A stretch of DNA of 64,000 nt from Nitrosopumilus sp. (GCA_965218695.1 OZ244651.1:1568001-1632000); one strand, 5' to 3'; shown: positions 1 through 10,583, numbered from the stretch's first letter. Translations and numbers: made by a program. The notes: generated by a model not told the origin, from the letters alone.

Positions 1-922
1 ATGGTAACATGTTTGATACGGGTATTCTGTAGTAGTCCTTGAGATAGTCTACGGCTTCCTTGATTGCCTCCATTATTCTGTCCCAAATGTCGATGATTCT
101 CTCTTTCGCCAGTGACAGAATGATTTTTTTCTTGCATTCGCCTTCAAGCGCGAGTGAAATGGTCTGCAGGATTGACATATCATATAGCGTCTCATATCCC
201 ACGTTGTCAAGCTCTTCGATCAACGCCCTGAATTTTTCAGACAAGTCAAAGTCGCTCTTAAGATCGTATGTCTTAGCCACCATTATCTCGAAGGTGGAAA
301 GACGCGTCCCACCCTCGTTCATGCGGGTAAAGATTTCAGTTGCGATGTGTATCGGCGCATCGTTTACCTCTATTACAGAGAAGTTGTAGGCCTTCAACGT
401 GTTCGAGTATTCCTTCAGTTTCCCATGGTATTTGGGGTCATATTTCATGAGATCGGCAAAGTTACCGTCGTACAGTGTTTTCAGGTCAATAACGGAATGT
501 TGCCCGGCCTTGTCGTTTTTTACCATTATGATCGGCCCACCATCCTCCGCCTCAAGGTCCACCACGATGCGGCCAAAATCTTCCTTCTTGCCGTCACCGC
601 GCGGGATCGTTTCACCCATTAGAGCCGCAATCAGACTCGTTATTCTCTGTTGTCCGTCAAGCACGAAATGTACGTAGTCGCCCTCCGGCGGGTCTGGAAG
701 ATTCATGCTGCCGACATTCCTGACGGAACGCAGTCTTTCCTTTGTCTTCCAAATGATGAATGTGCCTACTGGGTATCCCTTAATTATGCTGTCAAGGAGG
801 CTTGCGGACTTGTTGAGATTCCAAACGAAATCGCGTTGAAACTGGGGTATCTTGATTTTTCCGCTGGTAACTTTGTACATTAAATCTGACAGAGATTCGG
901 TCGTCGGTTTGGGTAGTTCCAT
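1..922 (-). CDS. DUF262-domain protein (GmrSD-like type IV restriction / defence), runs off the window start
   Basis: Not in the ORF track. Manual translation from ATG at 922 gives MELPKPTTESLSDLMYKVTSGKIKIPQFQRDFVW...LLDSIIKGYPVG...VLDGQQRITSL...IFTRMNEGGTRLS, i.e. the QR, DGQQR and FxxxN motifs of DUF262. Confidence 0.88.
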   Translation of the reverse strand, partial: MELPKPTTESLSDLMYKVTSGKIKIPQFQRDFVWNLNKSASLLDSIIKGYPVGTFIIWKTKERLRSVRNVGSMNLPDPPEGDYVHFVLDGQQRITSLIAALMGETIPRGDGKKEDFGRIVVDLEAEDGGPIIMVKNDKAGQHSVIDLKTLYDGNFADLMKYDPKYHGKLKEYSNTLKAYNFSVIEVNDAPIHIATEIFTRMNEGGTRLSTFEIMVAKTYDLKSDFDLSEKFRALIEELDNVGYETLYDMSILQTISLALEGECKKKIILSLAKERIIDIWDRIMEAIKEAVDYLKDYYRIPVSNMLP

Positions 923-1091
923 TACCGAGGTCGATCCAGTACTCTGATAAACGTTTCCGCCAGGAGGGAATCTGAATTGACCGATTCCGATGATACATCT
1001 GCCTTGCGCAACCGGCAGGCTCAAACACCGCCCCCGGATACAGGCACGTAGCATTAGACATACTTTTAACCACATCCGACACCACCCAATC

Positions 1092-4000
1092 ATGACACTC
1101 ACAACATCCAGTTTTGGTGATGTTGTGAAACATTTGGAACGCGTTGCCAAGGGGGACGGCAAAACCGAGGGTGATCTCTTTGAAGCATTGATGAGATCCT
1201 TCCTCAAGACAGACGAACTCTACCGCGACCGGTTCCGCAACGTGTGGCTGTGGATGGAATATCCTGAAAGGAACGGAAGGGGTGATTTTGGCGTCGATAT
1301 TGTGGCAGAGGAGCAGGACGGGGGATTGTGCGCCATACAGTGCAAATTTTACCCCCACACGAAGCTGACCAAGTCGCACATAGACAGTTTCCTTGAGGCA
1401 GGCAGCAGGGACGAGTTCGATTCCATGCTGCTCATATATTCCGGCGACGGGTACGGGGCCAAGGTCGAAGACGCGCTGAAGGGGCACGGCTGCCGGATTC
1501 TTGACTTCATGGCGCTTGCAGGAAGCAACATGGACTGGCCGAACTTGGCCAAGGGGCTTACGGAAGTCAGGCAGAAGCCCAAATACGGCCTGCGGGACGA
1601 TCAAAAAGACGCGGTAAGGGACGTGAAACGCGGACTTGAAAGTACTGACAGGGGACGAATGATAATGGCATGCGGCACGGGCAAGACGCTGGTTTCGTTA
1701 AGGCTCGCAGAGGACATGATCGGCAAGGGCGGACTGGTACTGTATGCCGTCCCGTCCATATCATTGATGCACCAGGCGATACGGTACTGGTCAGAACAGA
1801 AGAGAATCCCGCACAGCTACGTGGGCGTGTGTTCTGACCCAAAAGTTAGCCACAGAACCGGGCGCGAAGATACCCCCGACATTTCGATCTCCGAGATGGA
1901 AATCAGGGTCACGACGGATCCGGACAAGATTGCCAAAAGCCTGAAGAAGACGGCTGGAAAACTGACCGTGGTTTTTTCGACATACCAGAGCATGAAGGCA
2001 ATCGTCAAGGCGCAGGAAAAGGCAGGCACGGCATTTGACCTGATACTGTGTGATGAGGCGCACCGCACGGCGGGCATAGAGCAGGGAAGCATGGAAGACA
2101 TGTCGCCATTCATGCTGGTGCACGACGAGGTGGATACCAAAAAGCGACTCTACATGACTGCGACGCCGAAAATATACGGGAGCGCGGTAAGGACGAAGGT
2201 TGCAAGGAACGATGCAAGGCCGTACTCCATGGACGACGAATCCAAGTTCGGTCCCTTGCTTTACGAAATGGGGTTCGCCGCCGCCATAGACCGAGGACTG
2301 CTCTCGGACTACAAGGTGGTGGTCTTGGGCGTGGACGAGCGGTACGGCGGACGCGCGTTGCAAAACATGATAAACACCACCACCGAGTCAGGCGACATCA
2401 ACCTGACAGACGCAGCGCGGATGCTCGGGCTGTACCGCATCCTGAACGAGCCCGACCAAGACATCGACATGCCCCCACTCCAAACGGCCATCGTATACAC
2501 CAACCGGGTACGGGATTCCAAATCGTTTGCCAACACGTTTGACAAACTGGCAATGCAGGTAAGCGACGAAGGCGGGTTGCGCTGTAGCGCGACGCACGTG
2601 GATGGCACGCAGAACGCGTCTGTCCGCGCGTCCGCACTGCAGCATCTGCGCGACAGCGCAAGCGACCCCGGAGAATGCAGGATACTCTCAAACGCCAAAT
2701 GCCTGTCAGAAGGCGTCGACGTTCCGACGCTTGACGCAGTCTGTTTCATGAACCCGAAATCGTCAAAGGTCGGGATAGTCCAGGCAGTCGGCCGGGTCAT
2801 GAGGAAAGTAGATGGCAAGGATTACGGCTACGTCATACTGCCCATCGGAATTCCCCCCAACGAGAAAGCGGAGACCATCTTGGACAACCACAACGTCTTT
2901 GACATGGTGTGGAACGTGCTGAATGCCATGAGGTCGCATGACGCCAACATGGACGTCGAGGTAAACACGGCAGATCTCAGGAAAAAGATGATAGACAAGG
3001 TAAAGGTGTTCGGCGTTGACCGCGAAGGTAAAATTCGAAAGGCGGGGGATGATCCAAAAACGTACCCACTAGGTGAACTTGACGTTGATGCGGATGCCCT
3101 GTATGCCAAGATAGTCGAAGAAGTCGGCGACCGGCGCTACCTGGAATACTGGGCAAAGGATGTGGCAACAGTGGTGGCGCGACTACAGGAGCGCATAGGC
3201 CTTGCAATAACCAACAATACGGCCAGGAAGAAATTCGACCTGTTCATGAAGGGCTTGCGCGACATCATAAACGACAGCATCACGGAATCCGACGGTATCG
3301 ACATGCTTGCGCAGCACATGGTAACGCGCCGCATATTCGACGCACTATTTGGCTCGGACGACTTTACCAAGCAGAACCCGATGTCCGCCGTGCTTGATGA
3401 CACCGTGGGAGAACTGCAAAGGCATGGCCTGGAATCCGAGATGAAGGACATTGAGGGGTTTTATGCCAGCATCGAGAACCGTGTCGCAGGACTGGACACC
3501 CATGACGCTAGGCAGCCGGTAATCGCGGAATTGTATGGAAAGTTCTTCAAGAAGGCATTCCCAAAGATGGCCGACAGGTTGGGTATCGTCTACACGCCCC
3601 CGGAGATAGTGGACTTTATCCTGCGCTCAGTCGATCATGTGTTACGGGAGAACTTCGGGCGCGGCCTGACAGACAAGAATATCAACATCATAGATCCATT
3701 TACTGGTGCCGGAACGTTTCTGGCACGGCTGATGTCGCCTGAACTTGGTCTCATACAGGATCGGGACATCAAGCGGAAATACAAGAGCGAGATGTATGCA
3801 AATGAAATTGTACTGCTGGCATATTATATCGCAGCAGTCAACTGTGAATCCGCATATGGATACAAGACAGGTTCTTTCAAGCCTTTTTCTGGCGTTTCCC
3901 TCACAGACACATTCAATCCGGGAAACATGGACGAGTATGCCGGGGATGTCATGACAGGCCCAAAGGAAAGAATCAGGAGACAGCGCGAATCCCCCATAAC

Positions 4001-6122
4001 GGTAATCATGGCGAATCCCCCATACTCTGTAGGTCAGGGAAACGCCAACAAAGACAACAGGAATACGTCACACCCAATGTTGGAAGGAAGATTAAGAGAG
4101 ACGTATGTCAAACGAGCCCCCAAGGGCAACAAGGTATCTTTGTATAATTCCTACATCAAGGCATTCAGATGGGCATCTGACAGGATTGGAGAATCCGGTG
4201 TGATAGGGTTTGTAACACCGGCTTCATTTATCACCGGAAACGCGGAAGCCGGTGTCCGTGCTTGTTTGTATGGAGAGTTCACAGACATATGGTGCTTCAA
4301 TCTGCGGGGAGATGTAAAGAACAAAGATACATGGAAGAAGGAGGGCGGCAAGATATTTGGGAGTGGTTCCAAAGAACCCATCGGCATTACCATTTTGGTT
4401 AAGAATCCCACCAAGCGCGGTTGTACCATACACTACAAACAGGTGGATGATTATCTTACCCAAGGGGAAAAACTGGATGTTGTCCGGAACGTGGGTTCCA
4501 TTATGGGTATTGAAGGCTGGGAGGATGTATTTCCAGACAAGCACCATTATTGGATAAACCAGCCCGGATTGGCAGGCGAAGAGTTTGAAAGACACATGTG
4601 TATGGGTAGTAAGGAAGTGAAACGCGGAAAGAGTGTTGAAGCGATGTTTGGTACATATTCACGAGGAGCTGCGACATCACGTGATGATTGGGTATACAAC
4701 ACATCTGAAAACGAATTAGAAGTAAATATGAGACGACATATTGATTATTGCAATTCTCAGGATCCGGATAATTTTATAATAAACCCAAAACAGGCGAAGA
4801 GTAACACTTCTTTGACAGAACGTATGAAACGACTCAAAAATATTATGTTTGATAAACATCAAATACGCACATCATTATATCGACCGTTTTTCAAACAGTG
4901 GTTGTATTTTGACAATACTTTTGTGGAGTCTAAATATCGAATCCCGTCATTCTTCCCTTCTAACACATCCAAGAATCTGGCCATCATGATTCCTGACAAG
5001 ATCAAGGGCAAATTTTCCACATTCATGACAAACACCACCCCCGATCTACACATCCATGAGGCATCTCAATGCTTTCCCATTAAGGCAAAGAGTGATATTG
5101 GCAAAAAACTAACGCCTTTTGTCACCACCCGTAACCCACTCAGAACCCACTCAGAACCCACTCAGAACCCACTCAGAACCCACTCAGAACCCACTCAGAA
5201 CCCACTCAGAACCCACTCAGAACCCACTCAGAACCCACTCAGAACCCACTCAGAACCCACTCAGAACCCACTCAGAACCCACTCAGAACCCACTCAGAAC
5301 CCACTCAGAACCCACTCAGAACCCACTCAGAACCCACTCAGAACCCACTCAGAACCCACTCAGAACCCACTCAGAACCCACTCAGAACCCACTCAGAACC
5401 CACTCAGAACCCACTCAGAACCCACTCAGAACCCACTCAGAACCCACTCAGAACCCACTCAGAACCCACTCAGAACCCACTCAGAACCCACTCAGAACCC
5501 ACTCAGAACCCACTCAGAACCCACTCAGAACCCACTCAGAACCCACTCAGAACCCACTCAGAACCCACTCAGAACCCACTCAGAACCCACTCAGAACCCA
5601 CTCAGAACCCACTCAGAACCCACTCAGAACCCACTCAGAACCCACTCAGAACCCACTCAGAACCCACTCAGAACCCACTCAGAACCCACTCAGAACCCAC
5701 TCAGAACCCACTCAGAACCCACTCAGAACCCACTCAGAACCCACTCAGAACCCACTCAGAACCCACTCAGAACCCACTCAGAACCCACTCAGAACCCACT
5801 CAGAACCCACTCAGAACCCACTCAGAACCCACTCAGAACCCACTCAGAACCCACTCAGAACCCACTCAGAACCCACTCAGAACCCACTCAGAACCCACTC
5901 AGAACCCACTCAGAACCCACTCAGAACCCACTCAGAACCCACTCAGAACCCACTCAGAACCCACTCAGAACCCACTCAGAACCCACTCAGAACCCACTCA
6001 GAACCCACTCAGAACCCACTCAGAACCCACTCAGAACCCACTCAGAACCCACTCAGAACCCACTCAGAACCCACTCAGAACCCACTCAGAACCCACTCAG
6101 AACCCACTCAACCCGACAATAA
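1092..6122 (+). CDS. Type ISP (LlaGI/LlaBIII-like) restriction-modification enzyme, main polypeptide: Mrr-type nuclease, SF2 helicase, N6-adenine MTase, TRD, then a repeat-encoded tail
   Basis: Nuclease GVDIVAE...AIQCKFY; Walker A MACGTGKT; DEAH; QAVGRVMR; MTase DPFTGAGTF and NPPY; TRD-like TSRDDWVYN, YRPFFKQWLYFD and PDL...QCFP. Likely start is ATG 1092 (ORF track starts at 990). Stops at TAA 6120-6122 just after the repeat. Confidence 0.92.
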   Translation: MTLTTSSFGDVVKHLERVAKGDGKTEGDLFEALMRSFLKTDELYRDRFRNVWLWMEYPERNGRGDFGVDIVAEEQDGGLCAIQCKFYPHTKLTKSHIDSFLEAGSRDEFDSMLLIYSGDGYGAKVEDALKGHGCRILDFMALAGSNMDWPNLAKGLTEVRQKPKYGLRDDQKDAVRDVKRGLESTDRGRMIMACGTGKTLVSLRLAEDMIGKGGLVLYAVPSISLMHQAIRYWSEQKRIPHSYVGVCSDPKVSHRTGREDTPDISISEMEIRVTTDPDKIAKSLKKTAGKLTVVFSTYQSMKAIVKAQEKAGTAFDLILCDEAHRTAGIEQGSMEDMSPFMLVHDEVDTKKRLYMTATPKIYGSAVRTKVARNDARPYSMDDESKFGPLLYEMGFAAAIDRGLLSDYKVVVLGVDERYGGRALQNMINTTTESGDINLTDAARMLGLYRILNEPDQDIDMPPLQTAIVYTNRVRDSKSFANTFDKLAMQVSDEGGLRCSATHVDGTQNASVRASALQHLRDSASDPGECRILSNAKCLSEGVDVPTLDAVCFMNPKSSKVGIVQAVGRVMRKVDGKDYGYVILPIGIPPNEKAETILDNHNVFDMVWNVLNAMRSHDANMDVEVNTADLRKKMIDKVKVFGVDREGKIRKAGDDPKTYPLGELDVDADALYAKIVEEVGDRRYLEYWAKDVATVVARLQERIGLAITNNTARKKFDLFMKGLRDIINDSITESDGIDMLAQHMVTRRIFDALFGSDDFTKQNPMSAVLDDTVGELQRHGLESEMKDIEGFYASIENRVAGLDTHDARQPVIAELYGKFFKKAFPKMADRLGIVYTPPEIVDFILRSVDHVLRENFGRGLTDKNINIIDPFTGAGTFLARLMSPELGLIQDRDIKRKYKSEMYANEIVLLAYYIAAVNCESAYGYKTGSFKPFSGVSLTDTFNPGNMDEYAGDVMTGPKERIRRQRESPITVIMANPPYSVGQGNANKDNRNTSHPMLEGRLRETYVKRAPKGNKVSLYNSYIKAFRWASDRIGESGVIGFVTPASFITGNAEAGVRACLYGEFTDIWCFNLRGDVKNKDTWKKEGGKIFGSGSKEPIGITILVKNPTKRGCTIHYKQVDDYLTQGEKLDVVRNVGSIMGIEGWEDVFPDKHHYWINQPGLAGEEFERHMCMGSKEVKRGKSVEAMFGTYSRGAATSRDDWVYNTSENELEVNMRRHIDYCNSQDPDNFIINPKQAKSNTSLTERMKRLKNIMFDKHQIRTSLYRPFFKQWLYFDNTFVESKYRIPSFFPSNTSKNLAIMIPDKIKGKFSTFMTNTTPDLHIHEASQCFPIKAKSDIGKKLTPFVTTRNPLRTHSEPTQNPLRTHSEPTQNPLRTHSEPTQNPLRTHSEPTQNPLRTHSEPTQNPLRTHSEPTQNPLRTHSEPTQNPLRTHSEPTQNPLRTHSEPTQNPLRTHSEPTQNPLRTHSEPTQNPLRTHSEPTQNPLRTHSEPTQNPLRTHSEPTQNPLRTHSEPTQNPLRTHSEPTQNPLRTHSEPTQNPLRTHSEPTQNPLRTHSEPTQNPLRTHSEPTQNPLRTHSEPTQNPLRTHSEPTQNPLRTHSEPTQNPLRTHSEPTQNPLRTHSEPTQNPLRTHSEPTQNPLRTHSEPTQNPLRTHSEPTQNPLRTHSEPTQNPLRTHSTRQ
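5133..6110 (+). repeat. Perfect tandem repeat (AACCCACTCAG)x88 plus a 10-nt partial unit, inside the Type ISP gene
   Basis: 5133-6100 is 968 bp = 88 x 11, followed by AACCCACTCA. It encodes the cyclic peptide THSEPTQNPLR in all three forward frames. Confidence 0.97.
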
Positions 6123-6232
6123 TAGTACCCGACAAGATCAAGGGCGAGTTTTCGGTATTCATAACGAACGTGACGCCGGATTTGGAAGCGGTGCATCACG
6201 GCCAATGCTTTCCGATGAGGGTGATGGAATGA
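6110..6232 (+). other. Second, diverged copy of a TRD segment of the Type ISP enzyme, currently out of frame
   Basis: The third frame reads NPTIIVPDKIKGEFSVFITNVTPDLEAVHHGQCFPMRVME*, paralogous to NLAIMIPDKIKGKFSTFMTNTTPDLHIHEASQCFPIKAK at about 4974-5090. Confidence 0.9.
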
Positions 6233-6912
6233 AGGATAACATCACGGATTGGGCATTGCAACAGTATCAGACGGCGTACAAGGACAACACCATCACGAAG
6301 GAAGACATATTCTACTACACGTATGGCATTTTGCACCACACCGGATATCGTGGCAAGTACCAAATTGTCTTGGTGCGCGGCCTTCCGCGCATCCCGATGG
6401 CTCCTGATTTTTGGGCATTCAGTGATGCCGGAAAGAGGCTTGCAGATCTGCACTTGGGGTATGAGACGTGTCCAAGGTATGATTTGGGCCAGCCGCTCAA
6501 CAAAATACCGGACGGTCCACGTGCCATAAAATTTGGAAGAAAGCCGGATCCTGATAATGTCGCCAAGACCATTGACGACGAATCCGTGCTTTTCATAAAC
6601 GGTATCAAGGTGTATGACAACATTCCGGCGATATCATACAAGGTAAACGGACGCACGCCGATAGGGTGGTTTGAAGACAGGTACAAGTTTTCCACGCACA
6701 AAGAGAGCGGCATCACGAATTATCCTCTGGAAGACGTAAGTGGTGATGATATACGCGGGATAATAGAACGCCTTGTCCATGTTGGTGTGGAGTCAGACAA
6801 AATTATGGTCGGACTGGCAAAAAAAGAGTTTGAGTCCGGCAAGGATTGGCAGCCTGCAAAGACCGGGATGGACGCGCATATGCAGTCTGGGGCGTTTCAG
6901 AGCACGTTGTAA
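6229..6912 (+). CDS. Type ISP C-terminal domain encoded as a separate ORF
   Basis: MKDNITDWALQQYQ...ITKEDIFYYTYGILH...YRGKY...LPRIP...FSDAGKRLADLHLGYE...YKVNGRTPIGW is typical of the LlaBIII-type C-terminus. The ATG overlaps the TGA of the upstream segment (ATGA) and is preceded by SD-like GAGGGTGA. Confidence 0.88.
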   Translation: MKDNITDWALQQYQTAYKDNTITKEDIFYYTYGILHHTGYRGKYQIVLVRGLPRIPMAPDFWAFSDAGKRLADLHLGYETCPRYDLGQPLNKIPDGPRAIKFGRKPDPDNVAKTIDDESVLFINGIKVYDNIPAISYKVNGRTPIGWFEDRYKFSTHKESGITNYPLEDVSGDDIRGIIERLVHVGVESDKIMVGLAKKEFESGKDWQPAKTGMDAHMQSGAFQSTL

Positions 6913-7019
6913 GTACGTCATAACCACGCAAACTGGCAGTAATTCATCTAATTTACTGATAAATCTTAATTTGACTTACACGAGTAGCCATATATACCAC
7001 AAAAGCAATTTCGTCGATA

Positions 7020-7697
7020 TTGGCTCAACAAAAATGGACAATTCCAACAGACATGTTAATAGATGGCTCTCTACATTGTGTAAAAAATGCAAAACGGTTG
7101 TCGGAAGACGCGAAATCACTGTTTGAATCTAAGCGCTATTCGTCGTGTCTATCGTTAGCAGTATTGGCATTAGAAGAATTAGGAAAATCGTTCATGCTGC
7201 TAGATGCATACGTGAAAAAACAGGAAGTAGAATCGAGGGATTGGTTTAAAAAATTTAGTTCACATCGAGAAAAATTAGAATTTTTAAGCGATTATCTCAG
7301 AACAAACTCTAATGACGAATCTCATAAAAACTCACTCGATAAAATGACCAATCTTATGAGAGCATTGTTAGAGAAAAAAATGGATTCGTTGTATGTCGAC
7401 TGGAACGGCACCCGAGGGGGATGGCGTTACTTTGATGAGCATGAAGGCGATAAGCAAAGAATTGCAAAAGAGGCTTTAACAGCATGCAAAGTGCTTATAG
7501 ACACCGTGTCCAAAAGCCTTGGTGACAGCGGTTTAAAGCTTCCTAACGAAATTGCAGAATCATTACGAAATGGTAAGGCCTATGGTTTTTGCGAAGAATG
7601 TGGCTTGTGTATGCTAACAGCGACAGATGTTAGAATCCACAGCATACAAACTGCCCACTACAGAATGTCATGGTATTCTGTGCCAGAAAAATCATAA
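7020..7697 (+). CDS. AbiV-family (HEPN-like) abortive-infection protein with a C-terminal Cys/His motif
   Basis: NAKRLSEDAKSL...LAVLALEELGK...FSSHREKL...SLYVDW pattern; AT-rich. TTG start is uncertain. Confidence 0.72.
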   Translation: MAQQKWTIPTDMLIDGSLHCVKNAKRLSEDAKSLFESKRYSSCLSLAVLALEELGKSFMLLDAYVKKQEVESRDWFKKFSSHREKLEFLSDYLRTNSNDESHKNSLDKMTNLMRALLEKKMDSLYVDWNGTRGGWRYFDEHEGDKQRIAKEALTACKVLIDTVSKSLGDSGLKLPNEIAESLRNGKAYGFCEECGLCMLTATDVRIHSIQTAHYRMSWYSVPEKS

Positions 7698-8324: not shown

Positions 8325-10583
8325 GTAAGAGGTCGCCTTTGCGAAGCGATTTCGTGCCTGATCTGCCCCGATTAATTACCAACTGAGCTACGTTTTCGGC
8401 CGTAAATGCCCATTTAATTGGCATTATTCTGAGTTTTTCCGGGGGAGTCCGACTGAGCTACGTTTTGGCAGATCCGGTGATCGGGCTTGCGAAGTGGCCT
8501 TTTTTGGCGCTGTCCGGGGCGGTGCGTTGTGCCCGAATCGGGTGGCGGGCCGGCACGGCGGCCTGACATGTCAGGCAACCGGTGCGACGGGAGTCGCGCA
8601 GGACATGCAGGGCAGCCATGGATGGATTTTGCAGGATTTATGCAGCTGTTGCTGCTACTGCCGGTATTTTTTCGACCATGCCTCGCATGTAGTCGACCAA
8701 AAAGTCGTGCGGGTTGACGCCGCGCATCCTGCACGTCTCGCGGATGGTGGCCAGGACGGCGTGGTTGTATGCGCCGGCAAGGCTCTTGCTGCCGCCTGAG
8801 ACCTTCCGGGATGCGACGCTGGGCCGCAGGGGACGCTCGGCATCGTTGTTATGGCACTTTGTGTTGAGGCGGATGAATGGGAACAGATGGGTGATCTCGC
8901 GCCGCAGCCGCTTGACAAACCGCTTGCAGTGGGGTTCGGTGTAGCTGCCAGACATCAGGCGCCTCACCCGGGCCAGGAGGTTGCGCACCTTGAGGTTTCG
9001 CGCGGCCTTGTCGTCATGCGGGTTGAGTCCCTTCTCTGCGTGCCAGGAATCGATGATTATCCCCTTTAGGGCCTTGGCAAACTTTTTGAATTCTGGCCCC
9101 GGGTTTTTCATGGCCAGGGTGCGGATGATCTCGCGGAGATAGTGGTAGTGGCACTTTTGGTGGGTTCTGCCGATGCGGTTCCACGCGGAGTGTGAATCAG
9201 AGGTGACGTGGCCTGCGTACCCTCCAAGCAGGGTCTCCAGCACGTCTCCTCCCCGGCGCTTGTCCACGTAAAAGACAGTCGAGTTGTCACCGACTAGTAT
9301 CCACAGCCAGTACAGCACACCGGCTACCCTCCAGCTGGTCTCGTCCCCGAAGACATGCTCTGAGAAGAATATCTCCTCGAGCATCTCCTCGTAGAGCGGG
9401 TGGAGGGATCCTGTCACGGCATCCACGTGGCCGATGACAGTCGACTTTGCAAGGCCCGTGTGGTAGATTATGTTGATCAGCTTGCGGATGGGTTCGTATG
9501 GAATGTTGTACATCCTCATCGTCGTCTCAAGGCACGTCAGGCTGGCGCCGAACCGTCCACCGGGGACGACCCCTGGGATCTCGGGGGCAAACTGCCTGCC
9601 GCATTCCCTGCAGTACCTGCGGACGACGGTATACTGGATGCCGGTCAGCTTCCCGTCGATAATCTCCTCGACTACCCGGATGGTCACCTCGGTGGGCTCC
9701 TTCGAGAGGGCATGGCCGTGCGGGCAGGCGGGCATGTCGACTAGCTTTTTTTCGGATATCGGGGGAGGATCACGGCCGGTGCGCAGGCAGACGACCTTCC
9801 TGAACGGATTCGGCGCAGGCCCGGGCGATTCCCGGAGCCGCTTCTGGGAGCGGCGGCTTTTGATGCCCAGATTCTCGGCTGCCAGCGCCGAGTTGGCCGC
9901 GCGCGCCTCCCTCAACTGAGAGGCATGCTCTGATGCCTGCTGCTCCAGGCGGGCTATCCTGTCCATGACTGCCTGCGAGACGTCGCATCCCTGCAGGAGG
10001 GCGGCATTCTCTGCCCGCAGCTTCTCTACCTCTACCTTCAAATTCTCCATATCTCCTCCCAGATTCTCTATCTCTGCATCTTTCAGCTCTATCTCGGAGT
10101 CCTTTTGTTCTATCTCGGAGTCCTTTTGCACATTCTCTTCTTCCAGCAGTTTGATCCTGGCATCCATCTCCGTCAGCATCGCGTGTTCCCCTGAGAAGGC
10201 CTCTGCCTCCTCCTTCAGCTGCTCGATGTCTTTTCTCAGCGCCATGCTCTCCTCGTCCTTGGATTTGAGCATGTCAAGGACGGATTCGAAGAGGGACCTG
10301 GTGTCTGTTACGGAGTTCCAGTCAATCTTTTCCAAGTCGATTACAGGCACCACGCCATAACACGGGAAGGCATGATCCATAAAGCTTTTGGGCACGCAGC
10401 GCCTGCCGGAAAATGCGGCGCAAAAGATCCAACCGGAAGAGCCTTGATCCGAAAACCGCCCTGTCTGAGGACCGTGTTGATAACGTGCAATTAATCGGGT
10501 ATTTATGGTCAAAAACGTAGCTCAGTTGGTAATTAATCGGGACAGATCAGGCACGGAATCGCTTCGCAAAGGCGACCTCTTAC
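8325..10583 (-). mobile_element. IS66-family element (single ORF, ISBst12-like) with about 96-bp imperfect terminal IRs
   Basis: Ends GTAAGAGGTCGCC / GGCGACCTCTTAC; 8-bp TSD TCAAAAAG at 8317-8324 and 10584-10591. Confidence 0.95.
8638..10380 (-). CDS. IS66 transposase with a long N-terminal coiled coil
   Basis: GDETSW, TSDSHSAW, HQKCHYHYLR and NNDAERPLR motifs. Start uncertain. Confidence 0.9.
   Translation of the reverse strand: MDHAFPCYGVVPVIDLEKIDWNSVTDTRSLFESVLDMLKSKDEESMALRKDIEQLKEEAEAFSGEHAMLTEMDARIKLLEEENVQKDSEIEQKDSEIELKDAEIENLGGDMENLKVEVEKLRAENAALLQGCDVSQAVMDRIARLEQQASEHASQLREARAANSALAAENLGIKSRRSQKRLRESPGPAPNPFRKVVCLRTGRDPPPISEKKLVDMPACPHGHALSKEPTEVTIRVVEEIIDGKLTGIQYTVVRRYCRECGRQFAPEIPGVVPGGRFGASLTCLETTMRMYNIPYEPIRKLINIIYHTGLAKSTVIGHVDAVTGSLHPLYEEMLEEIFFSEHVFGDETSWRVAGVLYWLWILVGDNSTVFYVDKRRGGDVLETLLGGYAGHVTSDSHSAWNRIGRTHQKCHYHYLREIIRTLAMKNPGPEFKKFAKALKGIIIDSWHAEKGLNPHDDKAARNLKVRNLLARVRRLMSGSYTEPHCKRFVKRLRREITHLFPFIRLNTKCHNNDAERPLRPSVASRKVSGGSKSLAGAYNHAVLATIRETCRMRGVNPHDFLVDYMRGMVEKIPAVAATAA

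Follow-up and report, generated by a model that had tools for sequence, protein, structure and literature searches.

Introduction

Type ISP restriction-modification enzymes combine all their activities in one polypeptide, among them ATP-driven translocation, collision-dependent cleavage and the methylation of one strand. They read DNA with a specificity domain in which single residues have been assigned to single bases. In the structural report on LlaGI and LlaBIII (PMC4872093), LlaBIII N1360 and LlaGI H1368 are described as equivalent readers of the top-strand base +3, where H1368 recognizes G and N1360 recognizes A, and G1372 and Q1373 in the same Loop VI (1365-1374) as readers of the bottom strand. 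In other restriction-modification systems, repeat-driven on/off switching is reported for Type III mod genes and for the Type IIG gene cj0031 of Campylobacter jejuni (PMC4889913); phasevarions have been surveyed (PMC5909438, PMC7383803), and Type I phasevarions are also on record. Frameshifts reported in Type ISP genes of Helicobacter pylori are stated not to be caused by repeats (PMC3936762). Here, we describe a Type ISP gene that spans positions 990-6912 (plus strand; open reading frame (ORF) list and translation) of a stretch of 64,000 nucleotides from Nitrosopumilus sp. (GCA_965218695.1 OZ244651.1:1568001-1632000), referred to as the window throughout, and in which a piece of the specificity domain is present on either side of a perfect 11-bp repeat. 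In the literature searched, we found no report linking Type ISP, Nitrosopumilus or Cenarchaeum with phase variation, and none of contingency loci in ammonia-oxidizing archaea.

Results

Two Loop VI cassettes flank a perfect repeat

A preliminary description of the window had pointed to a hidden second copy of a specificity-domain segment, lying outside the frame of the gene, and to two corresponding peptides, HIHEAS-QCFP before and EAVHHG-QCFP after the repeat. Both are present as described (Table 1). The duplicated piece comprises 33-36 codons. The gene-frame translation of copy 1 at 4974-5081 contains NLAIMIPDKIKGKFSTFMTNTTPDLHIHEASQCFPI; read from 6110, the frame of copy 2 translates as NPTIIVPDKIKGEFSVFITNVTPDLEAVHHGQCFPMRVME, followed by a stop, so that the copy ends in QCFPMRVME with its TGA at 6230-6232. 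Over 36 aligned codons the copies are identical in 21/36 residues and 67/108 bases, with the differences falling on codon positions 1/2/3 as 12/7/22. All five synonymous pairs that had been listed (CCT/CCC, TCC/TCG, ACA/ACG, CCC/CCG, CTA/TTG) were recovered in the codon table, and each of the six residues between PDL and QCFP is replaced. A 15-bp identity, GACAAGATCAAGGGC, occurs at 4995-5009 and 6131-6145 and nowhere else in the window. A segment profile derived from homologues matches both window copies (75.3 and 72.5 bits), strongly indicating that their likeness is not due to chance. That the copy is old, as had been suggested, agrees with a proportion of synonymous differences (pS) of 0.73 between copy 1 and copy 2 and with the occurrence of the two-copy layout in 17 other loci.

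To place the segment structurally, copy 1 was aligned to LlaBIII 1300-1363 and LlaGI chain positions 1142-1205; the LlaGI crystal construct lacks residues 2-165, and chain position 1204 hence corresponds to H1368. The residue immediately following PD(L/V/M) aligns with LlaBIII N1360 and LlaGI H1368, and the duplicated piece also includes the beta-hairpin 1347-1358, which is packed on Loop VI. By this alignment the six variable residues are assigned to Loop VI and are predicted to read target base +3, in line with the earlier proposal that the variable hexapeptide lies in a DNA-contacting loop, for which just this comparison had been recommended. The first residue of Loop VI in the window is H in copy 1 and E in copy 2.

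The intervening repeat of AACCCACTCAG, which was found at this locus only in the 2.63-Mb genome, has no stop in any of the three forward frames, and every unit moves the frame by 2; in the frame of the upstream ORF (ORF1) it reads (NPLRTHSEPTQ)n. Copy 1 may thereby be in frame with copy 2 (phase A), with the C-terminal ORF (ORF2; phase B) or with neither (phase C). Frame arithmetic places the window with its 88.9 units in phase C, where ORF1 ends at the TAA at 6120-6122, the C-terminal 227 amino acids (aa) lie in another frame and the enzyme is not encoded as a single polypeptide. One unit fewer leads to phase A, with the protein ending at 6230-6232, and one unit more or two fewer to phase B, the only phase in which a single chain arises. 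The alternative cassette is thus within reach of slippage, as the preliminary description had supposed, since the loss of one unit puts copy 2 in frame. As this loss ends ORF1 at 6230-6232, the C-terminal part would then have to be supplied as a separate chain. Read in the frame of ORF2, the DNA of copy 2 is a stop-free linker ending in PDNNSTRQDQGRVFGIHNERDAGFGSGASRPMLSDEGDG.

The module is conserved in Nitrosopumilaceae

Among 301 genomes of the family searched for the C-terminal part of the enzyme, 24, that of the window included, were positive. DNA was analyzed for 30 loci (L012-L041), 18 further places (L042-L059) and 80 loci of named genomes (L060-L139); the two-copy set comprises 18 loci in 11 genomes. 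In all 18, copy 1, linker and copy 2 follow each other in this order, and the TGA that comes next is out of frame with the C-terminal ORF by one; relative to this ORF, copy 2 is in frame +1, one frame ahead, and Loop VI is unlike between the copies. The linker contains a 100% pure repeat in 17/18 loci, with units of 1, 2, 7, 8 or 11 bp, none of which is divisible by 3. All three phases are represented: four loci are in phase A, nine in phase B and five, like the window, in phase C. The C-terminal parts of these loci are 54-63% identical to that of the window (14 aligned).

The same arrangement can be traced in protein collections. Both copies occur in one frame in three proteins (P0011, P0027, P0048) among the 120 homologues of the C-terminal part listed in a search for longer proteins. 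With the two-copy region of P0048 as query, 22 proteins were retrieved, and 14 of these (P0122-P0135) consist of copy 1, a linker, copy 2 and then an end, ..FPMKVME(K), resembling that of copy 2 in the window; their linkers have peptide periodicities that betray repeats in the underlying DNA. In P0046, P0036, P0096, P0017 and P0002, the last being near-identical to the window protein, copy 1 is followed by copy 2 DNA read in another frame and continues into the C-terminal part. In a quick tree of C-terminal parts, the 16 labelled archaeal two-copy rows are distributed over two clades that also include single-copy rows (2 changes needed), a pattern that would fit an old origin with losses or exchanges and suggests nothing beyond that.

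Further arrangements were observed. One genome bin (G194, 87% complete) has nine copies of the C-terminal part, including several two-copy loci, a tandem pair (L044) and orphan or decayed copies (L044b, L045). A locus of genome G056 (L021/L067) carries three cassettes: copy 1 shares the frame of the C-terminal part, and the two that follow it, with NSVSPT and EVIHHG as Loop VI and G7 between them, are silent and lack stops in the read-through frame. A second archaeal layout, without ATGA overlap, was found in L066, L070 and L071 (Nitrosopumilaceae, Nitrosopumilus), in which copy 1 is followed by (GA)n of 10.5-24.5 units and by copy 2 one frame behind the C-terminal part; L070 and L071 lie 44 kb apart in one genome and are unlike in unit number and phase.

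Copy 2 is constrained in two frames

Twelve copy 2 sequences compared in their own frame gave a proportion of nonsynonymous differences (pN) of 0.176 and a pS of 0.626, that is, pN/pS 0.28, as opposed to 2.2 and 1.7 in the other two frames; differences per codon position 1/2/3 amounted to 0.22, 0.12 and 0.49. The low ratio in its own frame and the excess at third positions indicate that copy 2 has evolved as a protein. Coding constraint on the out-of-frame copy had been put forward in the preliminary description together with a comparison of the dN/dS type across loci, and the value of 0.28 bears it out.

A second constraint is apparent in the frame that leads into the C-terminal ORF. No stop occurs there in any of 19 silent cassettes, whereas the equivalent frame is interrupted in 17/18 copy 1 segments (42 stops) and in 16/16 single-copy genes (35 stops); the third frame has stops in 12/12 copy 2 sequences. 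Since the silent cassettes are free of stops in just this frame, the read-through of copy 2 DNA as a linker in phase B appears to be kept by selection as well. Loops of the EVVHHG type are also present in single-copy genes.

The C-terminal half has a putative start site of its own

At the junction between copy 2 and ORF2, the GGTGAT at 6220-6225 is complementary to the 3' end of the 16S rRNA of the window's genome, ..GGATCACCTCCT. An in-frame ATG is located two to four codons 5' of the residues NIT in 18/18 two-copy loci and in 0/16 single-copy loci; it overlaps the stop of the copy 2 frame as ATGA in 17/18 two-copy loci, and in 13/18 a match to the anti-16S 3' end of at least 5 nucleotides (nt) lies 2-12 nt upstream of the ATG. 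At the level of the sequence, the junction thereby has the ATGA overlap and the putative upstream ribosome-binding match of coupled overlapping genes. Copy 2 is thus set apart from the C-terminal part by a conserved TGA/ATG overlap and not by decay. ORF2 matched 569 proteins (clusters in the protein collection; 124-398 aa) at E<=1e-20, and 102 among the 120 ORF2 matches listed start at the Met of this ATG, within six residues of NIT, so that gene callers concur in treating ORF2 as a separate ORF. A +1 or -1 ribosomal frameshift at the window junction was rejected, as neither a slippery heptamer nor CTTTGAC is seen there; the junction reads GGTGAT GGA ATG A with the C-terminal frame at -1 and is not of the prfB type.

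We also modeled the complex of P0122 residues 1040-1361, the specificity part of an ORF1, with the neighboring ORF2, P0250. The model reached a score of 0.88, compared to 0.01 for the best of 3 controls; this mark was attained by 58/80 solved complexes and by 2/110 mismatched pairs, counts that are only rough because custom alignments were used. Runs agreed in at least 85% of contacts, and the partner had a predicted local distance difference test (pLDDT) value of at least 86. P0122 and P0250 are halves of the fold solved in LlaGI and LlaBIII, and the pass may come from this likeness. For the fused two-copy protein P0048, AlphaFold2 with a 22-row alignment gave a mean pLDDT of 60, with values below 50 over 767-871 and 879-920, both copies included.

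A parallel arrangement occurs in bacteria

In four bacterial loci, L084, L092, L105 and L117 from bins of Rhodothermales, Thiotrichales, Bryobacterales and Vicinamibacterales, copy 1 is closely preceded by a pure repeat, namely (CCAA)21.8, (ACCG)11.5, G12 and (GGAC)15. Here, copy 1 shares the frame of the C-terminal part, copy 2 lags by one frame, and past copy 2 all four have G5, 3 nt and CTT TGA C. A Shine-Dalgarno-like G-run, a 3-nt spacer and CTT TGA C make up the prfB +1 frameshift motif as described in PMC12421855. The frame of the long upstream ORF is that of copy 1 in L117, that of copy 2 in L105, where it ends at the TGA just mentioned, and the third in L092. These three loci are in three different phases, and a productive phase would yield just one translated cassette. 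Copy 2 of the bacterial loci has a pN/pS of 0.20 (6 pairs). By analogy, the bacterial layout supports the view that the cassettes may be alternatives chosen by reading frame.

It might be argued that the repeat is a switch for nothing but the amount of enzyme or its form, whether fused, split or truncated, with copy 1 always providing the working loop and copy 2 being without effect on specificity. Such a switch would fit the P0122/P0250 model, which has copy 1 at the ORF2 interface and copy 2 unplaced, the fact that phase B, with copy 1 alone, is the commonest state (9/18), and the ON/OFF nature of known repeat-driven restriction-modification switches, for example the Campylobacter jejuni Type IIG gene (PMC4889913). 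It leaves unexplained, however, that copy 2 retains every fold-defining residue and a pN/pS of 0.28 in its own frame, that Loop VI differs in 18/18 loci, that the loop types of copy 2 are those of working single-copy genes, and that in the bacterial loci a phase would translate one cassette only. We consider this explanation unlikely, even though it is the strongest of the competitors to a choice between two loops.

Recombination between the copies is occasional

The 15-bp identity had been proposed to allow an in-frame deletion that swaps in the second cassette. This route is possible, and a natural recombinant of the kind proposed exists: L048 is a single-copy, one-frame mosaic in which 23 nt identical to the start of L042 copy 1 are followed by 48 nt identical to L042 copy 2, Loop VI included. 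It carries the copy 2 loop QVITNG, and a net +1 nt at the mosaic junction puts the whole in one frame. Recombinants between copy 1 and copy 2 thus do occur. The route is not conserved, however, the conserved one being change in repeat length: in the other 11 loci tested the longest run shared by the copies is 4-17 nt, with 4-9 nt in nine and 6 and 17 nt in the remaining two, and the other loci do not support the 15-mer as a conserved recombination site. Gene conversion between the copies was not seen in a comparison of loci, identity within a locus averaging 53.6 of 99 bases as compared to 55.0 +/- 5.5 between loci. Judged from these alignments, recombination would be an occasional exit from the module and not a conserved switch.

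The same observations bear on the idea that copy 2 is a silent donor which recombines with copy 1, whether through gene conversion or through a deletion between shared stretches like the 15-mer. Besides the 15-mer common to 4995 and 6131 and the mosaic L048, a contig of run X3 that bridges the repeat might be cited, since its copy 1 piece shows 0 differences from 6131-6169 over 39 nt, where run X1 shows 7; this is one contig of depth 2, and the stretch is either a conversion tract or a reporting quirk. Yet the two copies of a locus resemble each other no more closely than copies taken from separate loci, shared runs are short (4-9 nt) in 9 of the other 11 loci, and a deletion, being irreversible, cannot alone hold both cassettes under selection. 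Nor would a donor account for the purity of the repeats, the overlap at the ATGA or the absence of stops from the second frame. We regard it as distinctly improbable.

Two loci in G123:C1 (L038 and L050, ~2,083,000-2,090,700) lie ~6 kb apart on opposite strands; the first half of their specificity domain is identical as far as the segment's start, beyond which the two differ. They may be material for recombinational exchange. P0046 (470 aa), encoded by one of them, is an ORF with the specificity domain alone.

Repeat number varies between near-identical sequences

As in contingency loci, the repeat is pure and intragenic, its unit is not divisible by 3, and unit number varies between otherwise near-identical sequences, namely between L042 and L043 and between P0002 and the window. 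L042 and L043 are 99.29% identical over 3364 nt, with a single 8-nt gap corresponding to one repeat unit, one of the pair being in phase C and the other in phase B. P0002 differs from the window protein by a single substitution and has 2.9 units, in phase B; its value as evidence for a short allele is weakened by the fact that 31-mer assembly yields 32 nt at minimum.

Repeat depths at the level of sequencing runs were taken from Logan contigs (X1, X3, X6 and X7), not from raw reads. In X1, pure-repeat contigs have a depth of 420-425 and the flanks 4.9-6.5, and ~86x flank depth is expected for 978 nt. In X6, a repeat depth of 50 over flanks of 2.8-4.9 corresponds to roughly 13-21 units. For X3, the contigs listed include no repeat contig of high depth, and a tract of 32 nt is spanned by one contig of depth 2. 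Across 6078-7400, none of the four runs was reported to differ by a base or an indel; X1 and X3 cover 30/30 bins of this stretch and X6 covers 22, so that the junction is identical where the runs cover it; X7 contributed only short pieces of low likeness from other genes.

These depths also address whether the 978-bp perfect repeat is an artefact of assembly, as its 100% purity over 88.9 units and the mere 32 nt obtained in short-read assemblies might suggest. The repeat depth of 420-425 in X1, set against 4.9 at the right flank, matches the 86x (~422) expected for 978 nt. This counterpoint is limited in that X1 may be the source sample, in which case the depth checks the assembler and not the biology. 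Overall, an artefact is hardly credible.

The window's genome contains 27 pure arrays, seven of which have a unit not divisible by 3, and 21 runs of G or C of at least 9. One of the arrays, (AGTTCACCAC) x 8.4 at G000:C4:18046-18129, is 100% pure and precedes, by ~130 nt, an ORF of 805 aa that encodes a DNA methylase domain (N6_N4_Mtase); it may represent a second repeat-controlled methyltransferase in this genome. Another, (TGCC) x 63.8 at G000:C1:301122-301376, likewise 100% pure, lies between genes for an ABC-transporter permease and a homocysteine S-methyltransferase.

Gene anatomy and genomic context

The coordinates of the module and its surroundings are collected in Table 1. The gene has the Type ISP order of nuclease, SF2 ATPase, coupler, N6-adenine methyltransferase and specificity domain, and ORF1 matches the Pfam families Mrr_cat_2 (4.4e-26), ResIII (3.1e-20), Helicase_C (1.4e-9), ISP_coupler (3.6e-36) and N6_Mtase (1e-6); the motifs DEAH, NPPY and FTGAGTF are visible in its translation. 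Type_ISP_C is matched twice, by its N part in ORF1 (6.3e-31) and again in ORF2 (3.4e-41), the match being split at the module (profile positions 2-153 of 342 in ORF1, 167-327 in ORF2) with the N part stopping at QCFP (5067-5078). Translation of ORF1 likely starts at the ATG at 1092, where the near-identical protein P0002 is predicted to begin.

Table 1. Positions of the module, its gene and neighboring elements in the window.
Feature	Position	Strand	Remarks
Copy 1, beta-hairpin and Loop VI segment	4974..5081	+	gene frame; Loop VI HIHEAS at 5049-5066
Linker start KAKSDIGKKLTPFVTTR, 17 codons	5082..5132	+	resembles linker starts of relatives (LKTKSE.., LKAKKQN..)
Perfect repeat AACCCACTCAG x 88.9	5133..6110	+	TRF: 100% matches, no indels; 978 bp
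Copy 2, alternative hairpin and Loop VI cassette	6110..6232	+	frame +2 of gene; Loop VI EAVHHG at 6185-6202
Junction	6220..6232	+	GGTGAT 6220-6225; ATG 6229-6231 overlaps TGA 6230-6232 (ATGA)
ORF1, current phase	990..6122	+	Type ISP enzyme to first half of specificity domain, then repeat; ends TAA 6120-6122
ORF2, 227 aa	6229..6912	+	C-terminal half of specificity domain (core helices and 'guide'); frame +1 of ORF1
GmrSD-like restriction gene	2-1207	-	neighbor
AbiV-like HEPN gene	7020-7697	+	neighbor
IS66-family element	8325-10583		neighbor; 96-nt inverted ends, 92% complementary

The GmrSD-like and AbiV-like HEPN neighbors and the adjoining IS66 and IS240 transposases mark the locus as a defense island. 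No inverted repeat in the window involves 4900-6900, the only long pair (8325-8420/10488-10583) flanking the IS66 transposase; the module thus differs from invertible or shufflon-type systems, in which inverted repeats surround the cassettes and a site-specific recombinase acts on them. A DNA search with window positions 3600-7400 matched 0/40 relatives (24 of the same genus) and a protein search 0/37 genomes of the genus, and the locus is thus not shared at the genus level among the genomes searched. The window's genome has a second Type ISP gene (L039, G000:C6:21718-22383), which is single-copy, in one frame and 52% identical to ORF2.

The GC content along the gene is mosaic, with 0.55-0.60 at 1201-3000, ~0.47 at 3600-4650, 0.35-0.38 at 4651-5100 and ~0.50 past the repeat, and from this drop the first half of the specificity domain looks imported. 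One might therefore take the locus for a decaying gene, the scar of an imprecise exchange of specificity halves followed by a frameshift and a runaway minisatellite, all the more as the current phase truncates the protein, the island harbors IS66 and IS240 transposases and some relatives (L044b, L045) are clearly decayed. Against this, layout and frame offsets recur in 18/18 loci (ATGA in 17/18) at a C-terminal identity of only 54-63%, the read-through frame of silent cassettes is without stops, and the 1362 codons upstream of the module are intact with every domain present. Decay is, accordingly, a very improbable explanation.

Discussion

From the anatomy of the module and its recurrence among loci, the constraint that copy 2 shows in two frames, the repeats and the presence of every phase among the loci, we conclude that the locus is probably a frame-switch module, in which the number of repeat units moves the enzyme among phases A, B and C and copy 2 serves as an alternative Loop VI cassette. 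In the proposed mechanism, slipped-strand gain or loss of repeat units would shift the upstream enzyme among the three phases. In phase A, copy 1 and copy 2 would both be translated and ORF1 would terminate at the ATGA; ORF2 would be produced as a second chain by re-initiation and/or from its own Shine-Dalgarno-like site and would bind ORF1. In phase B, copy 1 would read through the DNA of copy 2 in its stop-free frame and be fused to the C-terminal part, so that only the copy 1 loop is present. Phase C would lead to an early stop past the repeat. We infer that switching is frequent and reversible within a population and that ORF2 is translated on its own. Judging from how copy 1 aligns with LlaGI and LlaBIII, the enzymes of phases A and B would differ at base +3, phase A using the loop of copy 2 and hence reading another base there than phase B. 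The earlier notion of a stored alternative specificity holds insofar as copy 2 is reachable and has an alternative Loop VI; the change of specificity itself would follow from the predicted role of this loop.

Several points weigh against this interpretation. The 18 loci are not independent, six being derived from one bin (G194), among them two that are near-identical. Unit numbers based on sequencing runs rest on contigs of depth 2-6 and not on reads from one population; P0002 and X3 could result from a collapse during assembly, because a 31-mer graph yields no tract shorter than 32 nt. The 88.9 units of the window correspond to ~326 repeat residues within the domain in phases A and B, as compared to 5-26 units elsewhere, and this allele may be beyond use. 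Shine-Dalgarno pairing at the junction is putative for Nitrosopumilaceae, and ORF2 as well as all phases have been read from DNA sequence alone. The confident interface in the P0122/P0250 model is formed by copy 1 residues 1252-1291 and by none of copy 2 (1323-1358), and the sole informative structural model thus leaves copy 2 outside the core when both copies are present.

More broadly, it might be speculated that in Type ISP enzymes of marine and sponge-associated archaea and of bacteria a repeat-chosen reading frame picks the Loop VI cassette, so that target base +3 would flip without recombination, and that the enzyme is rejoined by a split subunit at the ATGA in archaea and by a prfB-like +1 frameshift in bacteria. 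We put this general scheme forward tentatively, at somewhat less than an even chance.

If true, no repeat-driven contingency switch would have been described in archaea before this one, and the specificity of a restriction enzyme would be varied in a new way, one base-reading loop being altered by nothing but the reading frame. The module's DNA, which carries meaning in one frame and is simply kept open in another, would be an unusual case of two-frame selection. With 569 clusters of ORF2-like stand-alone proteins, the module would be common, and many Type ISP genes annotated as 'frameshifted' or 'split', together with adjacent 'hypothetical proteins' of 220 aa, would be parts of one switchable gene. 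Natural pairs of Loop VI on otherwise identical enzymes would also be material to extend the partial recognition code that has been proposed for Type ISP enzymes (PMC4872093).

Comparison with known systems

LlaGI and LlaBIII (PDB 5FFJ, 4XQK) share with the window gene the domain order of an Mrr-like nuclease, SF2 ATPase, coupler and methyltransferase, the latter being a gamma-class N6-adenine methyltransferase in both cases, and a specificity domain with core and guide; the duplicated piece matches the hairpin and Loop VI of their core. They are, however, single chains with one Loop VI, whereas the window locus has two Loop VI cassettes with a repeat in between and a separable C-terminal ORF. 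All elements of the prfB (RF2) frameshift motif are present only at the copy 2 ends of the bacterial loci L084, L092, L105 and L117; the site in these loci is not in prfB, and frameshifting there is predicted. The archaeal junction of the window differs in being an ATGA overlap with the opposite frame offset.

Like the phase-variable restriction-modification genes of bacteria, the window gene has a pure intragenic repeat with a unit that is not a multiple of 3 and that shifts a methyltransferase-bearing gene. The bacterial genes are switched on and off, with the repeat mostly near the 5' end. In contrast, the repeat of the window module separates two cassettes within the specificity domain, a full domain set results in two of the three phases, and the host is an archaeon.

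In Type I systems, specificity is switched by inversions in hsdS that swap whole recognition domains, and a homopolymer in the NgoAV hsdS truncates HsdS. The module shares with these systems a stochastic genetic change that alters the DNA-reading part in use, but here one loop-bearing segment would be chosen by frame in DNA that is open in two frames. In engineered proteins with 'alternate frame folding', a duplicated segment provides two mutually exclusive ways to complete one fold. While these are laboratory designs, the duplicate in the module is natural, and its presence in the protein is set by the reading frame.

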